A program made the translations under genes and the position numbers. This document shows, piece after piece, positions 2,595 through 18,870 of a DNA stretch of 18,870 nt. The stretch's first letter is position 1. Every line of letters starts with the position of its first letter. The stretch comes from a virus (Duplodnaviria; Heunggongvirae; Uroviricota; Caudoviricetes): the IMG/VR virus record IMGVR_UViG_2740892232_000009; one strand, written 5' to 3'. Below the pieces are notes generated by a model. That model saw only the letters and a list, made by a program, of their open reading frames with translations. It was not told where the DNA came from and ran no database searches.

Positions 2595-3404
2595 TTATTC
2601 CTCTGAATTATCGATTACACTGTATTCCCCGGTTAATACAGAGGAATCTGCAGGATCGATTGTCAGTGGTTCCTTTTCATCCATTGATACTGCACGCTGG
2701 ATCTCAATTGATACGGGCAGATATTTGAACAGGCGACGAATAGCTGTTTTCTTTGCCATTTCTTCCCAGTGAGTTACCCACGGCCCGTTATTACCAGCTT
2801 TACTCTGGCTGCGCACCAGCTCAATCTGTCTGCGCGTCATAACTTCAAACTGAGTACCTCCGTCTTTCAGTCTTGCGACAGCATAGACGTGGGTAACCGG
2901 GGCATCTTCGTTTTCTCCTGGGCGGTGTATTAACTTTTCATCAAGGCCAAATTCGAAATTAAATTCGTCACCTTCACGGACAACACGGGCTGACAGGCTG
3001 GCGATTTGACCTGAACGGCGAGCCAGATCAATCATGCCGCGATAGCCAATGATTAGCTGAACGTTTTTTTTACCGCTCTTTTCGTTTTTATTACCAAAAG
3101 GCAGTAAATATGCATGACCGAGGGCGCTACCTGGCTCAAGTCCGAGCTGTGAACACTGTACGATTGCACTGACAAAACTCATAGTGTCACAGTTTCCTAA
3201 CGCCGGAACTTTACGAATTTCTGTGGTGGCGATACGGATCATACGTTCAGCCGTCATATGGCGTGGAAGAGCTGCTGCCAGTTGCTCTTTCATTGATGGC
3301 TGGTTAATAAAACTAATCACGTCGTTATTTTTAATTGCTGCTGGTGCACGGTTTCCCTGAGTTTTTTGCAGATCGGCTTTTGCGATTGGTGGTTGCTTAG
3401 TCAT
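2595..3404 (-). CDS. recT: RecT single-strand annealing protein (269 aa)
   Basis: Translation from [28 protein letters not shown]... Start ATG 3402-3404 overlaps the recE stop (3397-3399), indicating translational coupling. Confidence 0.95.
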
Positions 3405-5997
3405 TTGCATATTCCTTAGCCCAGCGGGGCAGTGATAACGTCTTAATAGCTGGCCATTCATCGGTATTGAGGCAGTCAGCCAGGGTTCGCAGATTGCGGT
3501 GATATTCCAGCTGACCTGCCAGTTTTGCTTCTTCGCCCATCATGAAAATTTCAACCGGATAACGTCCGCATTCAATAGTTGTGCTGGCAACCAGAAAAAC
3601 GAAAGTTGGCTGCACTCCAAACTGTGCTTCATAACCGTCACTGTAGAATGCATCCTGAACGTGATAGCGGTAGTCGTAATAAGCGGTTTTGAATCGTTGA
3701 ATATCCGCCGTAGTTTTCACGTCCATGATCCAGTGAAATTCAGGGATAATTTTGTCCGGACGGCACCGACACAAAATTCCTGTTTCAGGATCTTCCCAGT
3801 AAATTGATGATTCAGCGTGTCCGGCGCTTTCAACAAGCCATTGCCCCAGCGGCAAAGCCATAACGCTTTGATACATCAGTTCAATTTTCCGGCCTTCTTC
3901 CGCAGTGATAACCATTTTTCCTGTGCTTGCGCATTCCATCAGAAACGCTTTCTCTTCTTCTTTTCCGGCGTTTGTACGGCGGTTAAATTCAGGTGCTACG
4001 ATAAAGCGGTTACTGAATTCTTCCGGTTCAAGTACCCGGCAGTGGAAAGCAGTTCCTAAATCGAGCGTTTTTGTCTTTGTGGTGTCCACGGGGGCATTTT
4101 TACGCCACAAATACAGTGCCGGAGTATCAGCAATGTCATCGAGCTGAGACTTACTGACACCGGGACCTGCGTGGTAATTCTCATTCGAAATTCCGTAATA
4201 AATACCTGGCTCTATGTCTTCTACGATTACGGGATCTGCGACTTCGCCAGTTTCATCACTGCAATCGCGATGCGGATCGCTGCCAGCATTCTCATTGTGC
4301 GGATGTTCAGCGCCTTCCATTTCCTCCGGATCATTTTCCTTAGCTTCAACCTGATTCTCTTCATCGAATGTTTCCTGGTTTGTTGCGTCGCCCATCACCG
4401 CACCACAGTCAGGGCAGTTATCCCCGCCAGTCTGGCCGTAGGCATTGCAGGCTATTTCCGGTTCCTGTTGCACTACTGGCTCAGGTTGTTTCATATCCGG
4501 GCTGGTTTTTTCCGTTTCTGGCTGGTTCTGGTACACAGAATCGCGAGTCTGGATCCCCTTAACCCATTTCGGATCGTTCGGGTCGCTAATTCCGTCAACA
4601 AATTCACCACGTGATGCAGCAAGCAATTTATCGGCATCGACAGGATTTTTTGATGGAATGTTTTTCCGGGCTTCATGGAGTTCTGCCCGCAGTTCCTGAT
4701 ATTTCGCATCAACAGAATTTACCTGTGACTGAGCATCCAGCGGCTGCGTGTCCTGATGATGTTTAGTTGCGTCCGGTTCCATTGTTTCAGCCTCTCCCTG
4801 TTCATCTGCCGTTGTTCCAGATGGTTGCAGTTTTTCTTCATCATCCTGTTTTCCTTCTTCTGTTACTCGCTGCGGCATCGGGGCAGAGGAGCGACCGCAG
4901 GCAATATCCACGATTTCCGGATCAGGGTTGGCATGATCGGTTTCAGTCAGTACTTTGTTCAGATATTCAGTGACGTGCGCGGGGATGACCTCGATCCCAA
5001 TTGGTGCTTCTTTTACGGACGCAACCACGATGGCGCGGGAATAATCCAGCCCGCCAGGCATGGTGATGAATTTGTCGCGGAAAACAGAAAAGGGCGGTTT
5101 ATTTTCAGCGATAATTTCCTCAATGCGTTTAGCGTGTGCCGGATGAAGGTTATAGATGTCCAGATCCATTGAACGGGCCAGTACGCCAGTGGCTACGTCG
5201 CGCGCCAGTGACGTCAGATCGTGTACGAAACCTTCGCCGCGATCGGTGAGGTTTCCGCCGCCAGCATTAGCACCGGAAGCCGTGCGAGTGATGTGTGAAA
5301 CACGATTACCCTTCATCCACTCTTTTGTCAGCAGTCCTCGATCGGTGTAGTCAGCGTTCAGGTATGCTTCGAAAAAAGCAGTTATCAGTCCCAGGTTTGA
5401 ATTACCAGGATTAGGGAAAACTTTGTCAGTGTCACGAACCAGTTTGTGGAGTTCGCGAATTTCCAGCGGGTCGAGCAGGCTGGTTTTGTGGGAAACAGCC
5501 AGGGCAGTAACAGCCGGTAGTTCTTCAGCCCGAGCAATGTGTAATGCCTGGAGTCCGTCGCGTGAAACGTGCGTTACCGGTTTTTCGCTGCCGTGTTGAG
5601 CAAGCCAACGAATGGGCAGTTCCTGGCCAGAAATTGGGAGTAGCATATTCTCCTCAATCTCAGTCATGTCTTCGCCGTTGACGTTGGTATTGCCTTGATA
5701 GTGAGCGTTGTCTGGTGCTGCTCCCGGTTTTAGTTCCCATGTCATGGAGTCTTTGCTGAGTTGATAGCGTTCACTCCAGGTAAAATCGATCTCACCTTCA
5801 GCGGGCAGGTCATTAACGACAGGAAAATTCGTGGCAACAGCTTTAAAATAGCTGCTCAGTTTTTTACCTGACTTAACGATCAGGTAGTCCAGAGTGGCAC
5901 AGGTCGATTCAAAATCGTTGCTTGCCCACAGGACGACGTCAGGTTCACCGGATGATTTTTTCGCTTTCCGTAACAGGAAGAGTGGTTTTGTGCTCAT
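3397..5997 (-). CDS. recE: RecE exonuclease VIII (866 aa)
   Basis: 866-aa ORF with acidic low-complexity middle and a C-terminal nuclease region, directly upstream of and overlapping recT. Matches recalled Rac RecE in length and sequence. Confidence 0.95.
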
Positions 5998-12380: not shown

Positions 12381-14639
12381 ATGAAACCAGAATACTTAAG
12401 AAAAATAGAATCATTGCAACGTGAGGTTGATGATTTCCATCCAGTGCTAAGAGCGCTTCTACCACGTTTGCCGACTGTTACACATGTTGAATATAAGCAA
12501 GGACCATCAGAAAAAGGTGCTGATTTTGTCATAATTAAACGAGATGAGGCATTAGACGAGGAAATATATATTGGTGTTATTTGTAAAGTTGGAAAGATAA
12601 TTCAGTCAAATAGTGAGGTTGAACGACAAATAGAAGAGTGTCAATTATATCCACGCTTTATTTCTTCTGGCTCTAAGAACATACATTTGAATGAAATTTG
12701 GGTTATTACTAATTCATCGATCTCAAATAATGCTCAAGAAAAAATTTACTTGAAATTCAAATCTACAAATATAAAATTTATAGAGGGTGAAAAAATATGT
12801 TCTTTAATCAGTAAATATTACCCAGAGTTTTGGGATTTCGAATCCATTAATTATGAACAATACTTAACAGATACATTGCAAACCATAAGTGATACACCTG
12901 AAAGCTCTTTTTTTGGTAGTGTTGGCATAAATAACCTTATTGATAGATATGTAAGCAAGGAAGATCATAAAAAACGCAGACACAGGCCGTTAAAACTGTA
13001 TAGTGTTGTGAGAGCCGAGAGATTTATTTTTTTAGAGGGAACCGTTGGCTCTGGGAAAAGTACTTTGCTGAAACAGTTAATTAGAAAAATAAAAGAAGAA
13101 TATTCTTACGAAAAAGACTACATCCTTCCAGTATTTTGTCAATACAAGGATGTTCTAGAAAAAAAACTTAATGTTGAAAATATAATACAAAGTGTGTTAA
13201 GTAAGTACAAAATACAACATGATGGGAATATTTTATTAATTGTTGATTCGGTGGATGAAGTAAAGGAATCACTTGAGGAAAGGCAAAACAACTTCAGGGA
13301 CATTGTAGAGAAAGTATCCAGGAATGATAAAATTCGATTACTAGTTGCTTCAAGAATTATGGATTCTCTTCAGGACTATGAAGTTATCGATCAGATGTTT
13401 GCAAGATACTCGATAATACCACTTAGCACAGGTCAAATAATCGACTTTGTAGATAAAATCTGCAATGACATTAAAATAACAAATAAACTTAAAAATGGTA
13501 TAGAAAAAACACCACTATTTAAGTTCATTCCCAGGACTCCAGTGAGCGCTATTCTTCTGGCAAGAATACTCTCTGATGAGATTAAAGAATTACCATCTAC
13601 AATGACAGAACTATACTCAAAATACAGTGAGATAGTATTGGGACGATGGGATACATCTAAGGGATTATTATCGCAAACAGAATATGATGTAATAAGTAAT
13701 ATATTAGTAGAAATTGCGATATTTATGATGGATAACTCTCTAAACTGCATATCAATTTCAGAAGTGCAGGACATGTTTTTAAATTATTTGGCCAAAAGAA
13801 ACTTGAATGTTGATGAGGACAAACTTTTCAAAAGACTAATTTATCGCAGTGAAGTAACAACAGTTAATGTTAGAAGTAATACGTTCTCATTTCTACACAG
13901 ATCATTCATGGAGTATTTTTACGCTGAAGGACTTAGGAAGCGTGGCCTAATAGACATAAATGATAATATTTATGATATTTATTGGGCAAATAGTTATTTC
14001 TTCTATTTTGGTTTGTTAAGAGACAATGAATATCTTATTGATAAAATTAATGAACTTAAACCTAGTAACGATAAAACAAGATTTTTAAGGTTATTTTATA
14101 ACGGTTCTTTTTATTTGGCTTCATATCTAACTCCGTATAAAAAAATAACGAGGGGAGTCCTTTTATCATATATAGATGCAGGTAAATTATATGTTGATAT
14201 TCTCAAGGGAAATACCGACATCCCGCTGAAGGAGTTTTCACCAGTAGCTCTTCTTTGTATTTTCACAAAGTGTTTAAGTAACAATTACGCATATGATTTT
14301 TTCAAATCTGCCTTGGAAGACTTGTCAGTTCAAATTGAACAATATGAGGAAATTGGTGAACATATTGATTATGCACGTTTCTTCATAGCATCAACACTGA
14401 ATGAGCTCGGGGATAAATCCGCATTTGATAGCTTAGTGGAAAAAAATAAATTAGGTGTTTTGATTAATTTAGGGATAACTCACGTTACAGACGACTCAGG
14501 GCTACTTAGCACTACGGTTGATAAGTACCTGAAAAAATTCAATAAAAAAGTACGAAGTAACCATGATATGTCTAATTATATATCTAAGTTATATGAGGAA
14601 TCTACAGGTTCCTTACGTACAAACCTGCAAATTCAATAA
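12381..14639 (+). CDS. STAND / NACHT-type P-loop NTPase (752 aa) with N-terminal restriction-endonuclease-like (Mrr-like) region; candidate antiphage defence protein
   Basis: Walker A LEGTVGSGKST (residues 218-228, nt 13032-13064). Walker B with the NACHT acidic pair LLIVDSVDE (286-294). Sensor-1-like LLVASR (320-325). N-terminal GPSEKGADFVII ... EIYIGVICK resembles the Mrr catalytic motifs. Gene is visibly AT-rich relative to its flanks. Confidence 0.7.
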   Translation: MKPEYLRKIESLQREVDDFHPVLRALLPRLPTVTHVEYKQGPSEKGADFVIIKRDEALDEEIYIGVICKVGKIIQSNSEVERQIEECQLYPRFISSGSKNIHLNEIWVITNSSISNNAQEKIYLKFKSTNIKFIEGEKICSLISKYYPEFWDFESINYEQYLTDTLQTISDTPESSFFGSVGINNLIDRYVSKEDHKKRRHRPLKLYSVVRAERFIFLEGTVGSGKSTLLKQLIRKIKEEYSYEKDYILPVFCQYKDVLEKKLNVENIIQSVLSKYKIQHDGNILLIVDSVDEVKESLEERQNNFRDIVEKVSRNDKIRLLVASRIMDSLQDYEVIDQMFARYSIIPLSTGQIIDFVDKICNDIKITNKLKNGIEKTPLFKFIPRTPVSAILLARILSDEIKELPSTMTELYSKYSEIVLGRWDTSKGLLSQTEYDVISNILVEIAIFMMDNSLNCISISEVQDMFLNYLAKRNLNVDEDKLFKRLIYRSEVTTVNVRSNTFSFLHRSFMEYFYAEGLRKRGLIDINDNIYDIYWANSYFFYFGLLRDNEYLIDKINELKPSNDKTRFLRLFYNGSFYLASYLTPYKKITRGVLLSYIDAGKLYVDILKGNTDIPLKEFSPVALLCIFTKCLSNNYAYDFFKSALEDLSVQIEQYEEIGEHIDYARFFIASTLNELGDKSAFDSLVEKNKLGVLINLGITHVTDDSGLLSTTVDKYLKKFNKKVRSNHDMSNYISKLYEESTGSLRTNLQIQ

Positions 14640-14650
14640 TAAATAGATTG

Positions 14651-14685
14651 TCACATTGAAGGTAACGTATCGACCTTCAATGTGA
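14651..14685 (+). terminator. Perfect 13-bp inverted repeat (TCACATTGAAGGT / ACCTTCAATGTGA, 9-nt loop) 11 bp after the NTPase stop; possible terminator
   Basis: Arms at 14651-14663 and 14673-14685. The downstream tract is only moderately U-rich, so intrinsic-terminator function is uncertain. Confidence 0.4.
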
Positions 14686-15007
14686 TGATTATCCTCTTGA
14701 TAATATAGCTTAAGCTACTTTCGACTTTCTGAGACAAAGAGATTGCAGAATGTATCAATCATAGTGAAGCTATCGTAAATGTTCGCACGTCGCTCAAATC
14801 AGATAGTCATATTTGAGTGAACTGCTTACTCAAAATGCTGGTTGGGGCCTGACTTAATACATCTGAAGAAGTGTTGGTTATGTTTGGCTGTTGTGTTCCA
14901 TTGCCAAAGAAAAAATAGATAAACTATACCCAATAGTTGTATTGAATCACTGACGAGACAGCCTCATATTTATCAGGACTGGTGTGCGTCCAATACAGGA
15001 GGTTGTC

Positions 15008-15097: not shown

Positions 15098-15308
15098 TTT
15101 TATATTGGCGAGGTGACGGGAGTTAAGTAGAATTGCTGCGGGTGCTTGAGGCTATCTGCCTCGGGCATGAACACCAAAGGCAGATAGAGAAAAGCCCCAG
15201 TTAACATTACGCGTCCGGCAAGACGCTTAACATTAATCTGAGGCCAATTTCATGCTTTGCACATGTAGGTTAGCCTCTTACGTGCCGAAAGGCAAGGAGA
15301 AGCAGGCT

Positions 15309-15464
15309 ATGAAGCAGCAAAAGGCGATGTTAATCGCCCTGATCGTCATCTGTTTAACCGTCATTGTGACGGCACTGGTAACGAGGAAAGACCTCTGCGA
15401 GGTACGAATCCGAACCGGGCAGACGGAGGTCGCTGTCTTCACAGCTTACGAACCTGAGGAGTAA
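15309..15464 (+). CDS. hokD: Hok-family type I toxin (51 aa)
   Basis: Translation MKQQKAMLIALIVICLTVIVTALVTRKDLCEVRIRTGQTEVAVFTAYEPEE. AGGAG at 15295-15299 upstream of ATG 15309. An in-frame upstream ATG at 15252 gives the 70-aa ORF-track version. Confidence 0.85.
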   Translation: MKQQKAMLIALIVICLTVIVTALVTRKDLCEVRIRTGQTEVAVFTAYEPEE

Positions 15465-16820: not shown

Positions 16821-17359
16821 TTTACCCAACGAATACAGGAAAAAGCGGAGAACACCTTCGTCTCGCCACGCTGGAAAGTGTCTGGATTCAGGGCAAACTG
16901 CGTATGTGGGGGCGCTGGTCGTATATTGGCGGTGGCAGGTCAGGAAATATGTTCAATCAGTTGTTGGCATCCAAAAAATTGACGAAAACAGCCATCAATG
17001 AAGCCCTGCGCAGAATGAAAAAAGCGGGAATAGAGAAAGCTGAGCTGGAAGCGTTTTTGAGAGAGATGATCAACGGCAAGCAAAAGAGCTGGCTGGCGCA
17101 TTGTACTGATGCAGAGGCGTTATGTATTGATCGGGTCATAAGTGAGGTGCTGGCAGAGCATCCAGGATTGATTAGCGTCCTTCGGCAACGGTATGAGGGG
17201 CGGGGGATGACCAAACGCAAAATGGCTGAATTGCTAAATGATGCACACCCAGAGTGGTGTTTTAGCACATGCGAAAAGCGAATTGCTAATTGGTTGGCCG
17301 TTGCTGAGTATGCGCTATACATTCCCATGCGAGAATCATTCGCTCAAAAAACGGCTTGA
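16817..17359 (+). CDS. Q-like late-gene antiterminator (180 aa from GTG 16817)
   Basis: GTG at 16817 overlaps the YbcO-like stop (GTGA) and is preceded by AGGAGGG with 6-nt spacer. Translation contains ESVWIQGKLRMWGRWSY. Position is last before the tRNA / lysis region. The ORF-track start at 16697 is an out-of-context extension. Confidence 0.65.
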   Translation: MIYPTNTGKSGEHLRLATLESVWIQGKLRMWGRWSYIGGGRSGNMFNQLLASKKLTKTAINEALRRMKKAGIEKAELEAFLREMINGKQKSWLAHCTDAEALCIDRVISEVLAEHPGLISVLRQRYEGRGMTKRKMAELLNDAHPEWCFSTCEKRIANWLAVAEYALYIPMRESFAQKTA

Positions 17360-17444
17360 TTTTTTACGCGTAAACTGCTTCAATTTTGCTACGCTTCGCA
17401 AAGCTGTATCGCGAGGCGAATCAAGCGCAATTAAACTTTAATAG

Positions 17445-17475
17445 AACCCGCCATCAAGCGGGTTTTGTTGTTATT
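17445..17475 (+). terminator. Rho-independent terminator about 85 nt after the Q stop
   Basis: Stem AACCCGC (17445-17451), loop catcaa, GCGGGTT (17458-17464), followed by TTGTTGTTATT. Confidence 0.7.
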
Positions 17476-17620
17476 ATGGTGTGATATAAGAAACGACATT
17501 TAATATTGCCTTCAAAATAAATTTGTTTATATATTGTCGCGTATATTTTAAGTGAAGGTGAAATGTTCACATAAAATAAAAATACATAAATAAATTTACA
17601 TAGCTTGACGCAAAGTGTTG

Positions 17621-17648
17621 TTGCGATTGGAATATTAAATCGTATCAT
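17621..17648 (+). promoter_or_regulatory. Promoter-like element upstream of the tRNA pair (possible tRNA or late promoter)
   Basis: -35 TTGCGA (17621-17626), 16-bp spacer, -10 TATCAT (17643-17648), within a very AT-rich stretch. Predicted start near 17655, at the base of the hairpin. Confidence 0.35.
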
Positions 17649-17655
17649 CGAAAAC

Positions 17656-17721
17656 GGTTCTGAGGGGGAACTCTTCTTTGCTCGGTGATATCGCTCGGTG
17701 ATATCGCTCCCCTGAAGAACC
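17656..17721 (+). repeat. Long imperfect hairpin enclosing a tandem 13-bp direct repeat (GCTCGGTGATATC x2 at 17680-17705), ending 3 nt before tRNA-Thr
   Basis: Outer arms GGTTCTGAGGGGG (17656-17668) and CCCCTGAAGAACC (17709-17721) pair at 11 of 13 positions including one G-T wobble. Each repeat unit contains a GATATC palindrome. Confidence 0.6.
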
Positions 17722-17724
17722 AAT

Positions 17725-17800
<76 letters not shown>

Positions 17801-17803
17801 TAT

Positions 17804-17878
<75 letters not shown>

Positions 17879-18241
17879 GCATTTAAAACAAGCCTTATTG
17901 TATTACGGCACTGGCGTATTTTTTTATTACGTGGGAGCAGGTTGTTTTGAAAAAGCATTCTGTTCTCTGGCTATGATTTGAGGCCGGGTGTAGCCTCAGT
18001 GCTAATTTTTTACGGCAGCAGAATGGTGCATTATCGGTGGAGATTTTGTATTTCCTGGCAGGGTCGGTGATGCATCATTTTGGTGTTGTAAAAGCACCAC
18101 AGAGGCGCTCCTCAGTGCGAGGGTGGTTTAAAGAGTCGGTTTAGCGGGAAACCACAGTATCCATGCAGCACGGAATACTTCGGGAGGCACCCGACGCCTC
18201 GGTTTAATAACAATTAAAAAATTCATCCCTTGCATTGACCA

Positions 18242-18267
18242 ACCGCCATATCTGGCGGTTTTTTTTA
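18242..18267 (+). terminator. Canonical rho-independent terminator
   Basis: Stem ACCGCCA (18242-18248), loop TATC, TGGCGGT (18253-18259), followed by a run of eight T. Confidence 0.8.
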
Positions 18268-18654
18268 TTCCTTTCTCAGGACAAAAAAAGACACGAGCAT
18301 ACAGGAATACTCGTGGGACAACGTCCTTTAGATAGCAATTTGCGAGAGGGTGAAAAGTAGCGCGGTCGTCGGATTAAGACCGCGGGACAAAGTCCATGAA
18401 GAATAATAAGTATTGGCCCCTTCTGGGGACATGTTCATACTACTAAGCTTCAGAAGTGGTTTAAATCATCAAATTAACCTTAATTTTCGATAAGTCTTAT
18501 TTCATTTCTTTGCGCCACACCTGGCGCGCATCAAATAACGCCACGCAAAGGGCATCTGCGGATGCCGGTGCTTTTGACGGGGTGTTTTTTACGGGCCGCT
18601 GGTGGCCATTTTTTGTTTCCATTACACAGCGCCCGCATCTGCGAGGTGGGGGTT

Positions 18655-18870
18655 ATGAAATCCATGGATAAGTTAACAACAGGTGTCGCCTATGGCACCT
18701 CCGCAGGCAGTGCTGGCTACTGGTTTTTACAGTTGCTCGATAGAGTCACGCCCTCACAGTGGGCAGCAATAGGTGTGCTGGGTAGTCTGGTGTTTGGCCT
18801 GTTGACGTATCTGACAAATCTTTATTTCAAGATTAAAGAAGATAAGCGTAAGGCTGCACGGGGAGAGTAA
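18655..18870 (+). CDS. Phage 21 S-type pinholin (71 aa) with dual-start MKSM motif; first lysis gene
   Basis: Translation [81 protein letters not shown] precedes ATG 18655; second in-frame ATG at 18664. Stop TAA is the last three bases of the window. Confidence 0.85.

Follow-up and report, generated by a model that had tools for sequence, protein, structure and literature searches.

Lambdoid prophages carry toxin genes (stx) and regulatory small RNAs (sRNAs), among them STnc100, PasD, StxS, AsxR and AgvB, in or near the region between the antiterminator gene Q and the lysis genes. Here, this slot was analyzed in a stretch of 18,870 nucleotides (nt) of an Escherichia coli Rac-like lambdoid prophage (IMG/VR record IMGVR_UViG_2740892232_000009), and the whole stretch is called the window in the following. 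The part under study, positions 17879-18654, is 100% identical to strain 19KM1766N. It probably contains RNA genes and not a protein-coding moron. The description that in our view fits best, though with considerable reservation, is that of an unannotated prophage sRNA of the STnc100/PasD kind in a tRNA-linked and extended variant, which is accompanied by a second candidate sRNA and by terminators.

In E. coli, the trailers of tRNA operons are a source of sRNAs. Examples are 3'ETS-leuZ from the glyW-cysT-leuZ operon, which is bound by Hfq, and RtT from the tyrT operon. Structured phage RNAs that are linked to tRNA genes are also known, i.e., the stable RNAs of the tRNA cluster of phage T4 (species 1 and 2), ROOL and GOLLD, and their function is unknown.

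STnc100 is present in multiple copies in Salmonella LT2 (PMC10794520), and its commonest prophage neighbours are genes of the Fels-1 prophage (bioRxiv 10.64898/2026.05.13.724894). In strain EDL933, RNA-seq reads were found for 11 STnc100 copies, one of which was confirmed by Northern blot (PMC5331693). One STnc100 copy is localized 75 nt downstream of stx2B (PMC12370729), and STnc100 at this site overlaps the Hfq-bound sRNA EcOnc27 (PMC12711010). PasD1 and PasD2 are Hfq-dependent sRNAs of enteropathogenic E. coli (EPEC); PasD was seen by ligation and sequencing of interacting RNAs (RIL-seq) as well as by Northern blot (PMC8550237). Zhu, Shabalina and Storz relate STnc100 to PasD1/PasD2 (bioRxiv 10.64898/2026.05.13.724894). 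The antiterminator Q and lpxR are found within 10 kb in >98% of the PasD hits, and the PasD loci are usually situated beside a holin/lysozyme operon (bioRxiv 10.64898/2026.05.13.724894; PMC8550237). The common niche of STnc100 and PasD is between Q and the lysis genes (bioRxiv 10.64898/2026.05.13.724894; PMC12370729).

Structured RNA behind two tRNA genes

Directly behind tRNA-Thr and tRNA-Gly, the plus strand of the window contains a structured RNA of about 390 nt (17879-18270; Table 1). A consensus fold of the whole unit was calculated with RNAalifold from 42 distinct sequences, and shifted partner columns served as controls. The consensus comprises 86 base pairs in 14 helices. In the 42 variants 98.8% of the consensus cells can pair, compared with 38-55% when the columns were shifted. 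Changes on both sides of a pair were found at 12 pairs and in 55 cells, versus 1-4 pairs and 1-7 cells in the shifted controls; the variants stem from a limited number of recombining lineages, and the cell counts overstate the number of independent events.

The first part of the RNA is a domain of several hairpins. In this 5' domain, the RNAalifold helices 1-5 contain six pairs with compensatory changes, and the z-score of the fold is -3.18 on the plus strand and -0.19 on the minus strand. The dominant feature of the RNA is the long imperfect hairpin that follows. It is absent from an earlier note on this DNA, which had been made from the sequence alone, and the same is true for the link to STnc100/PasD and for the minus-strand unit that is described below. 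The folding energy of the hairpin is -41.5 kcal/mol on the plus strand (z = -7.67) versus -12.5 kcal/mol on the minus strand (z = -1.25), and this asymmetry is due to the many G.U pairs.

Copies of the hairpin were collected in two ways; the first set was picked by an exact match to the apical 26-mer, and for a second scan a 17-mer from the 3' domain served as the anchor. Among 31 distinct variants of the first set, pairing is possible in 96% of the cells, compared with 36-55% when the partner column was shifted. Of the 30 stem pairs, 17 have changes at only one of the two positions and remain paired, and three have compensatory double changes. With the copies from the independent anchor included (52 distinct variants), 98.3% of the cells are paired versus 32-58% after shifting, and there are seven compensatory pairs; the independent second set removes the selection bias of the 26-mer only in part. 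The apical motif UAUUUCCUGGCAGGG is near-invariant, also in the copies that were found via the different anchor sequence.

The next part is a multibranch domain with four hairpins inside a closing helix. One pair of this helix is CG in 26 sequences and UA in 15, and the hairpin at 18156-18179 has compensatory changes at two pairs, in 12 and 8 sequences, respectively. The earlier note had proposed a recurring local hairpin GAGGC-N-GCCTC at 17981-17998 and 18184-18200. The sequence is indeed present at both sites, but the covariation favours other partners. The GCC at 17993-17995 pairs with 17913-17915, within the long-range helix that closes the 5' domain, and CGCCTC of the second site pairs with GAGGCG on the other side of the closing helix, not locally.

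The A/U-rich linker behind the multibranch domain might contain the Hfq-binding site as well as the seed region, because an unpaired A/U-rich sequence in combination with a U8 tail is the usual build of Hfq-dependent sRNAs, and because the seed of PasD that was predicted by its authors is within the equivalent linker (PMC8550237 supplement). The strong intrinsic terminator at the end of the RNA, placed at 18242-18267 by the earlier note, was found again by the scan. It is kept in all variants, and changes in its stem are compensated.

Promoter- and terminator-like sites were searched in the range 17300-18870 and compared with shuffled sequences, and six terminator-like sites were found versus 1.8 +/- 1.3 in the shuffles. 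Between tRNA-Gly and 18241 the scan listed no promoter-like site and, except for a weak hairpin at 17978-17999, no terminator-like site. Judged from its sequence, the sigma-70-like element upstream of tRNA-Thr may be the promoter of the tRNA/RNA unit. Equivalents are present upstream of the tRNA array in every context type, i.e., TTGCTC-16-TATTAT, TTGAAG-16-TATTAT, TTGCAA-17-TATTAT and TTGCAG-17-TATTAT. The best promoter-like match of the scan is at 17792-17819 (TCGGCA, 16 nt, TATAAT; 10/12); it reaches from the 3' end of tRNA-Thr into the 5' part of tRNA-Gly and is probably a chance match within conserved tRNA sequence.

Most leader types carry a conserved leader hairpin that abuts the first tRNA, and its pairing is kept despite changes, e.g., GGTTCCGAGGAG/CTCTTGAGGAACC in another leader type. 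In three loci (L011, L023 and L117) a leader of the same kind precedes a structured RNA unit without tRNA. In the window, the loop of the leader hairpin (17680-17705) contains an exact tandem duplication of 13 nt (GCTCGGTGATATC twice), and closely related loci have a single copy.

The linkage of the RNA to tRNA genes is systematic. All copies of the first scan for which upstream sequence was available are about 150-160 nt behind a tRNA-Gly(tcc) that ends a variable array, with the exception of the recombinant locus L042. Of 53 further copies found with a covariance model, 35 are situated 202-220 or 425-465 nt behind a tRNA (31 tRNA-Gly(tcc), 4 tRNA-Arg(tct)), 14 are without tRNA, and four were undecidable. 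Because of the lack of intervening sites, the upstream promoters and the tRNA linkage, the locus was read as promoter, leader, tRNAs, structured trailer and terminator, which would be transcribed as one unit.

Like 3'ETS-leuZ and RtT, the RNA is directly behind the last tRNA on the same strand, there is no promoter or strong terminator in between, it ends at the first strong terminator, and it would be released by tRNA processing. In contrast, the two known RNAs are chromosomal, shorter and unrelated in sequence, and processing and Hfq binding of the RNA in the window are predictions. The tRNA-Gly that the earlier note had seen in front of the segment was confirmed with ARAGORN and Rfam, and so was tRNA-Thr(tgt). 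The note had offered three explanations for the segment between tRNA-Gly and the terminator; it could be a non-coding RNA, a trailer processed from the tRNA, or what is left of a lost moron. The conserved, strand-specific and covarying structure argues for the non-coding RNA. The trailer is supported as well, because a conserved sigma-70-like promoter precedes the tRNA array and neither a promoter-like site nor a strong terminator separates tRNA-Gly from the RNA. The results support that these two options are the same thing.

Table 1. Positions of RNA elements and predicted signals between the Q-like gene and the holin gene (window coordinates)
Feature	Position	Strand	Evidence and remarks
Sigma-70-like promoter (putative)	17621-17648	+	promoter scan; -35 TTGCGA, 16 nt, -10 TATCAT
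Leader hairpin GGTTCTGAGGGG ... CCCCTGAAGAACC	17656-17721	+	read from sequence; abuts 5' end of tRNA-Thr
tRNA-Thr(tgt)	17725-17800	+	ARAGORN; Rfam tRNA model, 73.8 bits
tRNA-Gly(tcc)	17804-17878	+	ARAGORN; Rfam tRNA model, 65.6 bits
5' multi-hairpin domain	17879-18006	+	RNAalifold; closed by long-range helix 17907-17915/17993-18003
Long imperfect hairpin, about 30 bp, G.U-rich	18007-18094	+	folding energy and covariation
Apex of the long hairpin, small stem	18039-18044/18050-18055	+	loop UUUGU
Apex of the long hairpin, near-invariant bulge UGGCAGGG	18056-18063	+	
STnc100-like multibranch domain	18102-18200	+	covariation, Rfam; closing helix GAGGCG 18102-18107/CGCCTC 18195-18200, four hairpins
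Hairpins inside the closing helix	18110-18122, 18123-18155, 18156-18179, 18181-18193	+	the last one is CGGGAGGCACCCG
A/U-rich linker	18201-18240	+	unpaired in consensus; ends in conserved UUGCAUUGACCAA; U8 tail after terminator stem
Intrinsic terminator	18241-18270	+	scan; stem 18241-18260 (8 bp), run of eight T to 18270
Module D, candidate convergent sRNA	18283-18465	-	terminator scan, covariation, fold; about 146 nt (about 18430 to 18285)
Module E, terminator-rich holin leader	18498-18617	+	consensus structure, conservation
Module E, hairpin GCGCCA/TGGCGC	18512-18527	+	compensatory changes in consensus
Module E, second hairpin	18547-18575	+	G.U pairs valid on plus strand; U-run 18585-18590
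Module E, hairpin GGCC/GGCC	18594-18607	+	terminator scan; T-run 18609-18614
Holin-specific leader and ribosome-binding region	18618-18654	+	changes with holin type (identity 0.55-0.60)

Similarity to STnc100 and PasD, and forms in relatives

The earlier note had suggested a search with covariance models against RNA families. At the Rfam gathering score, the only matches in the region were the tRNAs. With a relaxed threshold, the full STnc100 model (RF02076, gathering score 47 bits) matched 18075-18270 with 22 bits (E = 0.008). The order of the helices is that of the STnc100 model, and the CGGGAGGCACCCG hairpin (an identical 13-mer) as well as a GUGCG loop match its consensus. The complete STnc100 architecture is present, i.e., the closing helix, several hairpins, the CGGGAGGCACCCG-type hairpin by the 3' strand, the A/U-rich linker and the terminator. 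The location is also that of STnc100, as the prophage is lambdoid and the RNA is found between Q and the lysis cassette on the strand of the late genes. The copy in the window does not have the form of a separate gene of about 200 nt that has a promoter of its own; the scan listed no promoter-like site from tRNA-Gly to the domain.

The similarity is weak and only in part reciprocal; it was seen in both directions with STnc100, and R1, a covariance model of the 3' domain, did not detect PasD1 or PasD2. A covariance model that was built from the 3' domain, R1, detected the canonical STnc100 in locus L042 (109 bits on RF02076) with 19.9 bits (E = 0.0012). The tRNA-less unit of locus L117 reached 81 bits with R1 and 36 bits on RF02076. 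PasD1 of EPEC has 37.7 bits on RF02076 and is, like the L117 unit, below the gathering score. In a BLAST comparison of the region with the PasD1, PasD2 and PasA loci of strain E2348/69 only the holin was found. MicroRNA-like matches in Rfam reflect the hairpin shape only and were rejected. From the sequence comparisons, the 3' domain can be read as a divergent, sub-threshold member of the STnc100/PasD group that does not reach the score set by Rfam itself. It shares with this group the niche, the late-gene strand, the closing helix with hairpins, the A/U-rich linker and the Rho-independent terminator. In contrast to the known members, the copy in the window is fused behind two tRNAs, it has an additional 5' domain of about 130 nt and the 30-bp hairpin (about 390 versus about 200 nt in total), it is without a promoter of its own, and the linker sequence is unlike the PasD seed.

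The distribution was analyzed in 5426 complete E. coli genomes, and matches that covered at least 80% of the query length were counted. The 776-nt region was found in 199 genomes with 81-100% identity, and the 392-nt RNA unit in 201 (about 4%), including the enteroaggregative (EAEC) strain 042 (NC_017626.1, 1549820-1550210) and the avian pathogenic (APEC) strain O1. The RNA unit was annotated in none of the 60 matches listed, where either no feature or a hypothetical protein of 41 aa is given. Among sequenced phages, the unit is present only in vB_EcoS-683R6 and in the LT-IIb phage SerU-LTIIb, the latter with two copies. With the 26-nt core, 91 stretches were found in IMG/VR, and a scan of species-representative genomes with the same 26-mer gave one genome only, that of Escherichia ruysiae.

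The comparison of relatives revealed that the slot is composed of blocks that were exchanged independently: a 5' block, the ultraconserved core, a middle block that also exists in a shorter alternative form, the terminator, block D of about 225 nt, and block E. Block D is missing in some loci, and block E is found downstream of unrelated genes, i.e., the Q-like gene, DNA methylases and an IS1 element. The segment is conserved and modular. The earlier note had named an ordinary conserved spacer in all relatives as the outcome that would speak against an RNA; instead, the segment has the signature of an RNA structure and is exchanged between phages.

The second scan revealed several arrangements. 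Some units are linked to tRNAs as in the window, and in others with tRNA linkage the apical part is different or the 5' region is much longer. Further units follow the same leader hairpin and lack a tRNA, and sometimes they form a tandem with a tRNA-linked unit. In four loci (L105, L112, L118 and L127) the 3' domain is bare; it has its own promoter-like sequence and terminator, and the same Q-like gene, followed by a terminator, directly precedes it. These stand-alone forms start a few nt before the closing helix, as PasD appears to do.

Some loci contain more than one copy. In SerU-LTIIb the unit is duplicated (1122-2456 and 3028-4127 of locus L002); one copy is associated with tRNA-Arg/Gly and the other with tRNA-Thr/Gly, and each is followed by a holin gene or a fragment of it, upstream of the LT-IIb enterotoxin genes. 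Six loci (L011, L023, L117, L126, L144 and L153) have two STnc100-like units in tandem, e.g., a tRNA-less unit followed by a tRNA-linked unit. The tandem units suggest repeated duplication or recombination of the module. In L042 (about 3806-4861, minus strand) the canonical STnc100 is about 600 nt upstream of a recombinant unit. The latter starts in the middle of the long hairpin, its 5' arm is replaced by unrelated sequence, and the breakpoint is exactly at the ultraconserved apical core.

Convergent candidate sRNA, holin leader and neighbouring genes

Module D, downstream of the terminator, is a candidate for a second sRNA, which would be transcribed from the minus strand. A weak promoter-like match consists of TTTAAA (18465-18460), 17 nt and TAGTAT (18442-18437). 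Both sequence types of the module retain the spacing and a -10 element, which is TAGTAT in one and TAATAT in the other. The scan revealed a minus-strand terminator with a hairpin at 18315-18292 and a T-run at 18291-18283, which faces the terminator of the plus strand. The terminator stems of the two sequence types are entirely different, both can pair, and in both the T-run is on the minus-strand side. Five hairpins with 27 pairs make up the minus-strand consensus; six of the pairs have compensatory changes, and the U.G pairs are valid on this strand only. The fold has a z-score of -3.96 on the minus strand and of -1.70 on the plus strand. One of the stems, CGCGGTC/GACCGCG at 18361-18384, had already been noticed earlier; it exists, and in relatives its pairing is kept via compensatory changes. 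An open reading frame (ORF) of 36 aa in module D is intact in one of 20 variants. In the short-form loci module D is missing as a whole, as expected of a self-contained insert.

The RNA of module D would be antisense to any late read-through transcript. In position and orientation module D resembles PasA of EPEC, which according to its sequence is encoded just upstream of the holin gene, likewise on the other strand, and has an intrinsic terminator at its end. In contrast to PasA/PasC, there is no sequence similarity, and the length is about 146 nt versus 84 nt, as far as can be predicted.

Module E precedes the holin gene and was read as a hairpin plus tandem terminators. The stem GCGCCA-cacc-TGGCGC, which had been given as 18511-18528, does exist at 18512-18527, and it has compensatory changes in relatives. 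Relatives with either of two differently annotated holin types have module E upstream of the holin gene, and the last hairpin of the module and the holin leader are common to many lambdoid phages. The annotation of phage Ayreon gives the GGCC/GGCC hairpin, which there separates a methylase gene from the holin gene, as a terminator. A stable structured RNA was also considered for module E and was rejected, because the fold z-scores were not significant on either strand. Three Rho-independent terminators are present (18241-18270, plus; 18315-18283, minus; 18594-18614, plus); their stems covary, and their T-runs stay on the expected side. Taken together, 17879-18654 has three parts, the probable tRNA-trailer RNA on the plus strand, the candidate sRNA on the minus strand and the terminator-rich leader on the plus strand.

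The order of the genes around the slot is DUF1367 gene, YbcO-type gene, Q-like gene, a terminator-like hairpin (17439-17470), an AT-rich stretch, the two tRNA genes, 17879-18654, and the holin gene. The Q-like gene encodes a DUF1133 protein of 180 aa (PF06576, PF06530), which also passes the Pfam cut-off for Phage_antitermQ and matches the PHROG family 'anti-termination protein Q-like'. The holin S gene is of the P21 type (PF04971, E = 4.8e-35), and its RefSeq start (essD) is at 18655. The Pfam and PHROG matches on the two sides verify that the region is a Q-to-lysis slot, as the earlier note had labelled it. In the full prophage the holin gene is followed by the genes for YdfR, lysozyme and an Rz-like protein and by trkG.

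Further elements were noticed in other parts of the window. The Rfam model of RalA, which is the RNA antitoxin in the type I toxin-antitoxin pair RalR/RalA and typical of Rac prophages, matched 2167-2345 on the plus strand with 220 bits. The sok antitoxin RNA was found at 15140-15314 (115.8 bits) and points to a locus of the hok/sok type upstream of the DUF1367 gene; in one relative (L004) RefSeq annotates a Hok/Gef protein at the same place. In the prophage of the identical strain (L003, 1606-2994), an NTPase with a NACHT domain is annotated by RefSeq at the place that corresponds to about 13484-14872, upstream of the late control region; it may be a prophage-borne defence gene. Relatives carry the S8 anti-phage peptidase IteS at a similar position (L005).

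Proposed mechanism and alternative readings

In the mechanism that we propose, the promoter upstream of tRNA-Thr would drive one transcript that includes the leader hairpin, tRNA-Thr, tRNA-Gly, the trailer of about 390 nt and the terminator at 18241-18270. The trailer would be freed by tRNA maturation, i.e., by RNase P and RNase E, and a further cut would yield an RNA of about 170-190 nt that is equivalent to the stand-alone STnc100/PasD sRNAs. This cut would have to be between the long hairpin and 18102, because the stand-alone forms begin just before the closing helix. Candidate enzymes are RNase III, which could cleave the long stem, and RNase E, which could cleave the A/U-rich joint at about 18088-18101. 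With its U-tail and A/U-rich linker the resulting RNA would bind Hfq, and it would act in trans in the lysogen. The terminators together would keep the constitutive promoter activity of the tRNA/RNA unit out of the holin gene, and passage through all of them would be limited to late transcription that the Q-like antiterminator has modified.

Several observations weigh against this interpretation. The 3' domain stays below the gathering score of STnc100, and R1 did not detect PasD1 or PasD2 at E values up to 10 with default filters. The promoter-like match of module D is weak (8/12) and was not reported by the scan, and for module E the fold of the single sequence lacks significance (z = -1.6), as does that on the other strand. 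The remaining selection bias of the 26-mer and the limited number of lineages mentioned above belong here, too. For this variant the promoter, the processing sites and the Hfq binding are all predictions, and the near-invariance of the apical bulge UGGCAGGG has no explanation in the model.

Late transcription that is modified by Q must cross the whole region to reach the holin gene, and the structures could thus act mainly in cis on the late transcript and not as an sRNA in trans, with a site for RNase III, Q-dependent checkpoints and an antisense brake from the minus strand. RNase III cuts duplexes of about 30 bp, and the long hairpin is a duplex of this kind; a cut in it would separate the tRNAs from the lysis mRNA or set the stability of the latter. 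The minus-strand unit is fully complementary to a late read-through transcript, and module E is kept directly upstream of both holin types, which also fits to this explanation. Against it stands the existence of the 3' domain as a stand-alone element with its own promoter-like sequence and terminator in the four loci named above, and also its relation to STnc100/PasD, which are Hfq-bound, trans-acting sRNAs (PMC8550237). In addition, a promoter-like element and a terminator are the build of a gene that is expressed in the lysogen. An action mainly in cis is regarded as rather unlikely, but the cis and trans readings are compatible and not mutually exclusive. The tRNA-linked units, both the form of about 390 nt and those in which the 3' domain starts 425-465 nt behind the tRNA, might constitute a distinct family of large modular phage RNAs. 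Its members would be composed of a 5' domain, the 30-bp hairpin with the UGGCAGGG bulge and an STnc100-like domain, and STnc100 and PasD would be stand-alone forms reduced from a larger ancestor. The UGGCAGGG motif would then be a protein-binding or decoy site, and the RNAs might act together with the co-transcribed tRNAs, either in counter-defence or in the translational takeover of the host. This idea is drawn by analogy to the unexplained linkage of ROOL and GOLLD with tRNA genes. As with T4 species 1 and 2, ROOL and GOLLD, a phage-encoded structured RNA is physically linked to phage tRNA genes; the hosts and the sizes differ, there is no match in sequence or structure, and none of them was listed for the region in Rfam searches at the gathering score or at E <= 10. 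We regard such a family as a quite unlikely, more speculative alternative.

It is very improbable that the region is a late control region of the lambda type (pR'-qut-tR'), in which about 18045 to 18267 would be the equivalent of lambda 6S RNA or StxS. The distances of about 200 nt from the core to the terminator and about 390 nt from there to the holin gene are presumably the same in lambda. Lambda 6S RNA and StxS are likewise short non-coding transcripts between Q and S that end at a strong terminator, which is read through by Q-modified polymerase. However, a promoter behind Q that travels with Q was not found within the region. The scan lists no promoter-like site in 17879-18654, the unit is also found behind DNA-methylase genes and an IS1 element and is thus not bound to one Q gene, and the G.U-rich, strand-specific pairing points to selection on an RNA, not on a DNA site. 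A promoter in the ultraconserved core was considered separately and rejected; hexamers chosen by eye were poor, the scan gave none, and the strand-asymmetric folding indicates an RNA element. The candidate that does fit pR' is outside the region, at 17358-17470, directly after the Q-like gene, and in this phage it is more likely to fill the role of 6S RNA/StxS. A promoter-like sequence (17358-17386; TTGATT, 17 nt, TTCAAT) directly after the stop codon is followed by a conserved stretch of about 50 nt and the terminator at 17439-17470. In other loci with the same Q-like gene the first 70 nt or so are kept and the terminator differs. By analogy, 17358-17470 looks like the pR'/qut of the phage with a tR'-terminated transcript of about 78 nt. 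Even less can be said for a decayed protein-coding moron or a small-protein gene, which is considered extremely improbable. Annotators have called ORFs in relatives (96-132 aa on the plus strand, 105 aa on the minus strand, and 41 aa at 18497-18622 on the minus strand by PGAP), and elsewhere the slot does carry protein morons, i.e., stx (PMC12370729) and, by the lysis genes of SerU-LTIIb, LT-II. In the window, the ORF list contains no ORF of at least 60 aa inside 17879-18654, as had been claimed. The sole longer ORF that touches the region (18562-18870, 102 aa) is the holin frame extended mechanically upstream of its RefSeq start. Every ORF of at least 30 aa in the window was checked in all variants, and each is intact in 0-33% of the distinct variants; for the PGAP ORF in module E it is two of 30. 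The T run at 18006-18013 varies in length among relatives, which shifts the frame, and the substitutions keep base pairs, not codons. The ORFs of relatives (133 and 97 codons on the plus strand, 105 aa on the minus strand) were also translated, and none is conserved. The remnant of a lost moron, the third option of the earlier note, is thus not supported.

With the tRNA-linked sRNA reading, the STnc100/PasD group would extend well past the threshold of Rfam. The analysis shows for many prophages a fusion in which tRNA genes, a 5' domain and a long conserved hairpin precede the sRNA-like domain. If the origin from a tRNA trailer is confirmed, the forms would make up an evolutionary series from the tRNA-linked long form via the tRNA-less form to the stand-alone form. 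Phage tRNA genes and prophage sRNA genes would then be joined in one transcription unit, and a phage example would join the small number of sRNAs that are known to come from tRNA spacers. Two leads can be tested directly, the invariant apical motif and the candidate convergent RNA of the minus strand.

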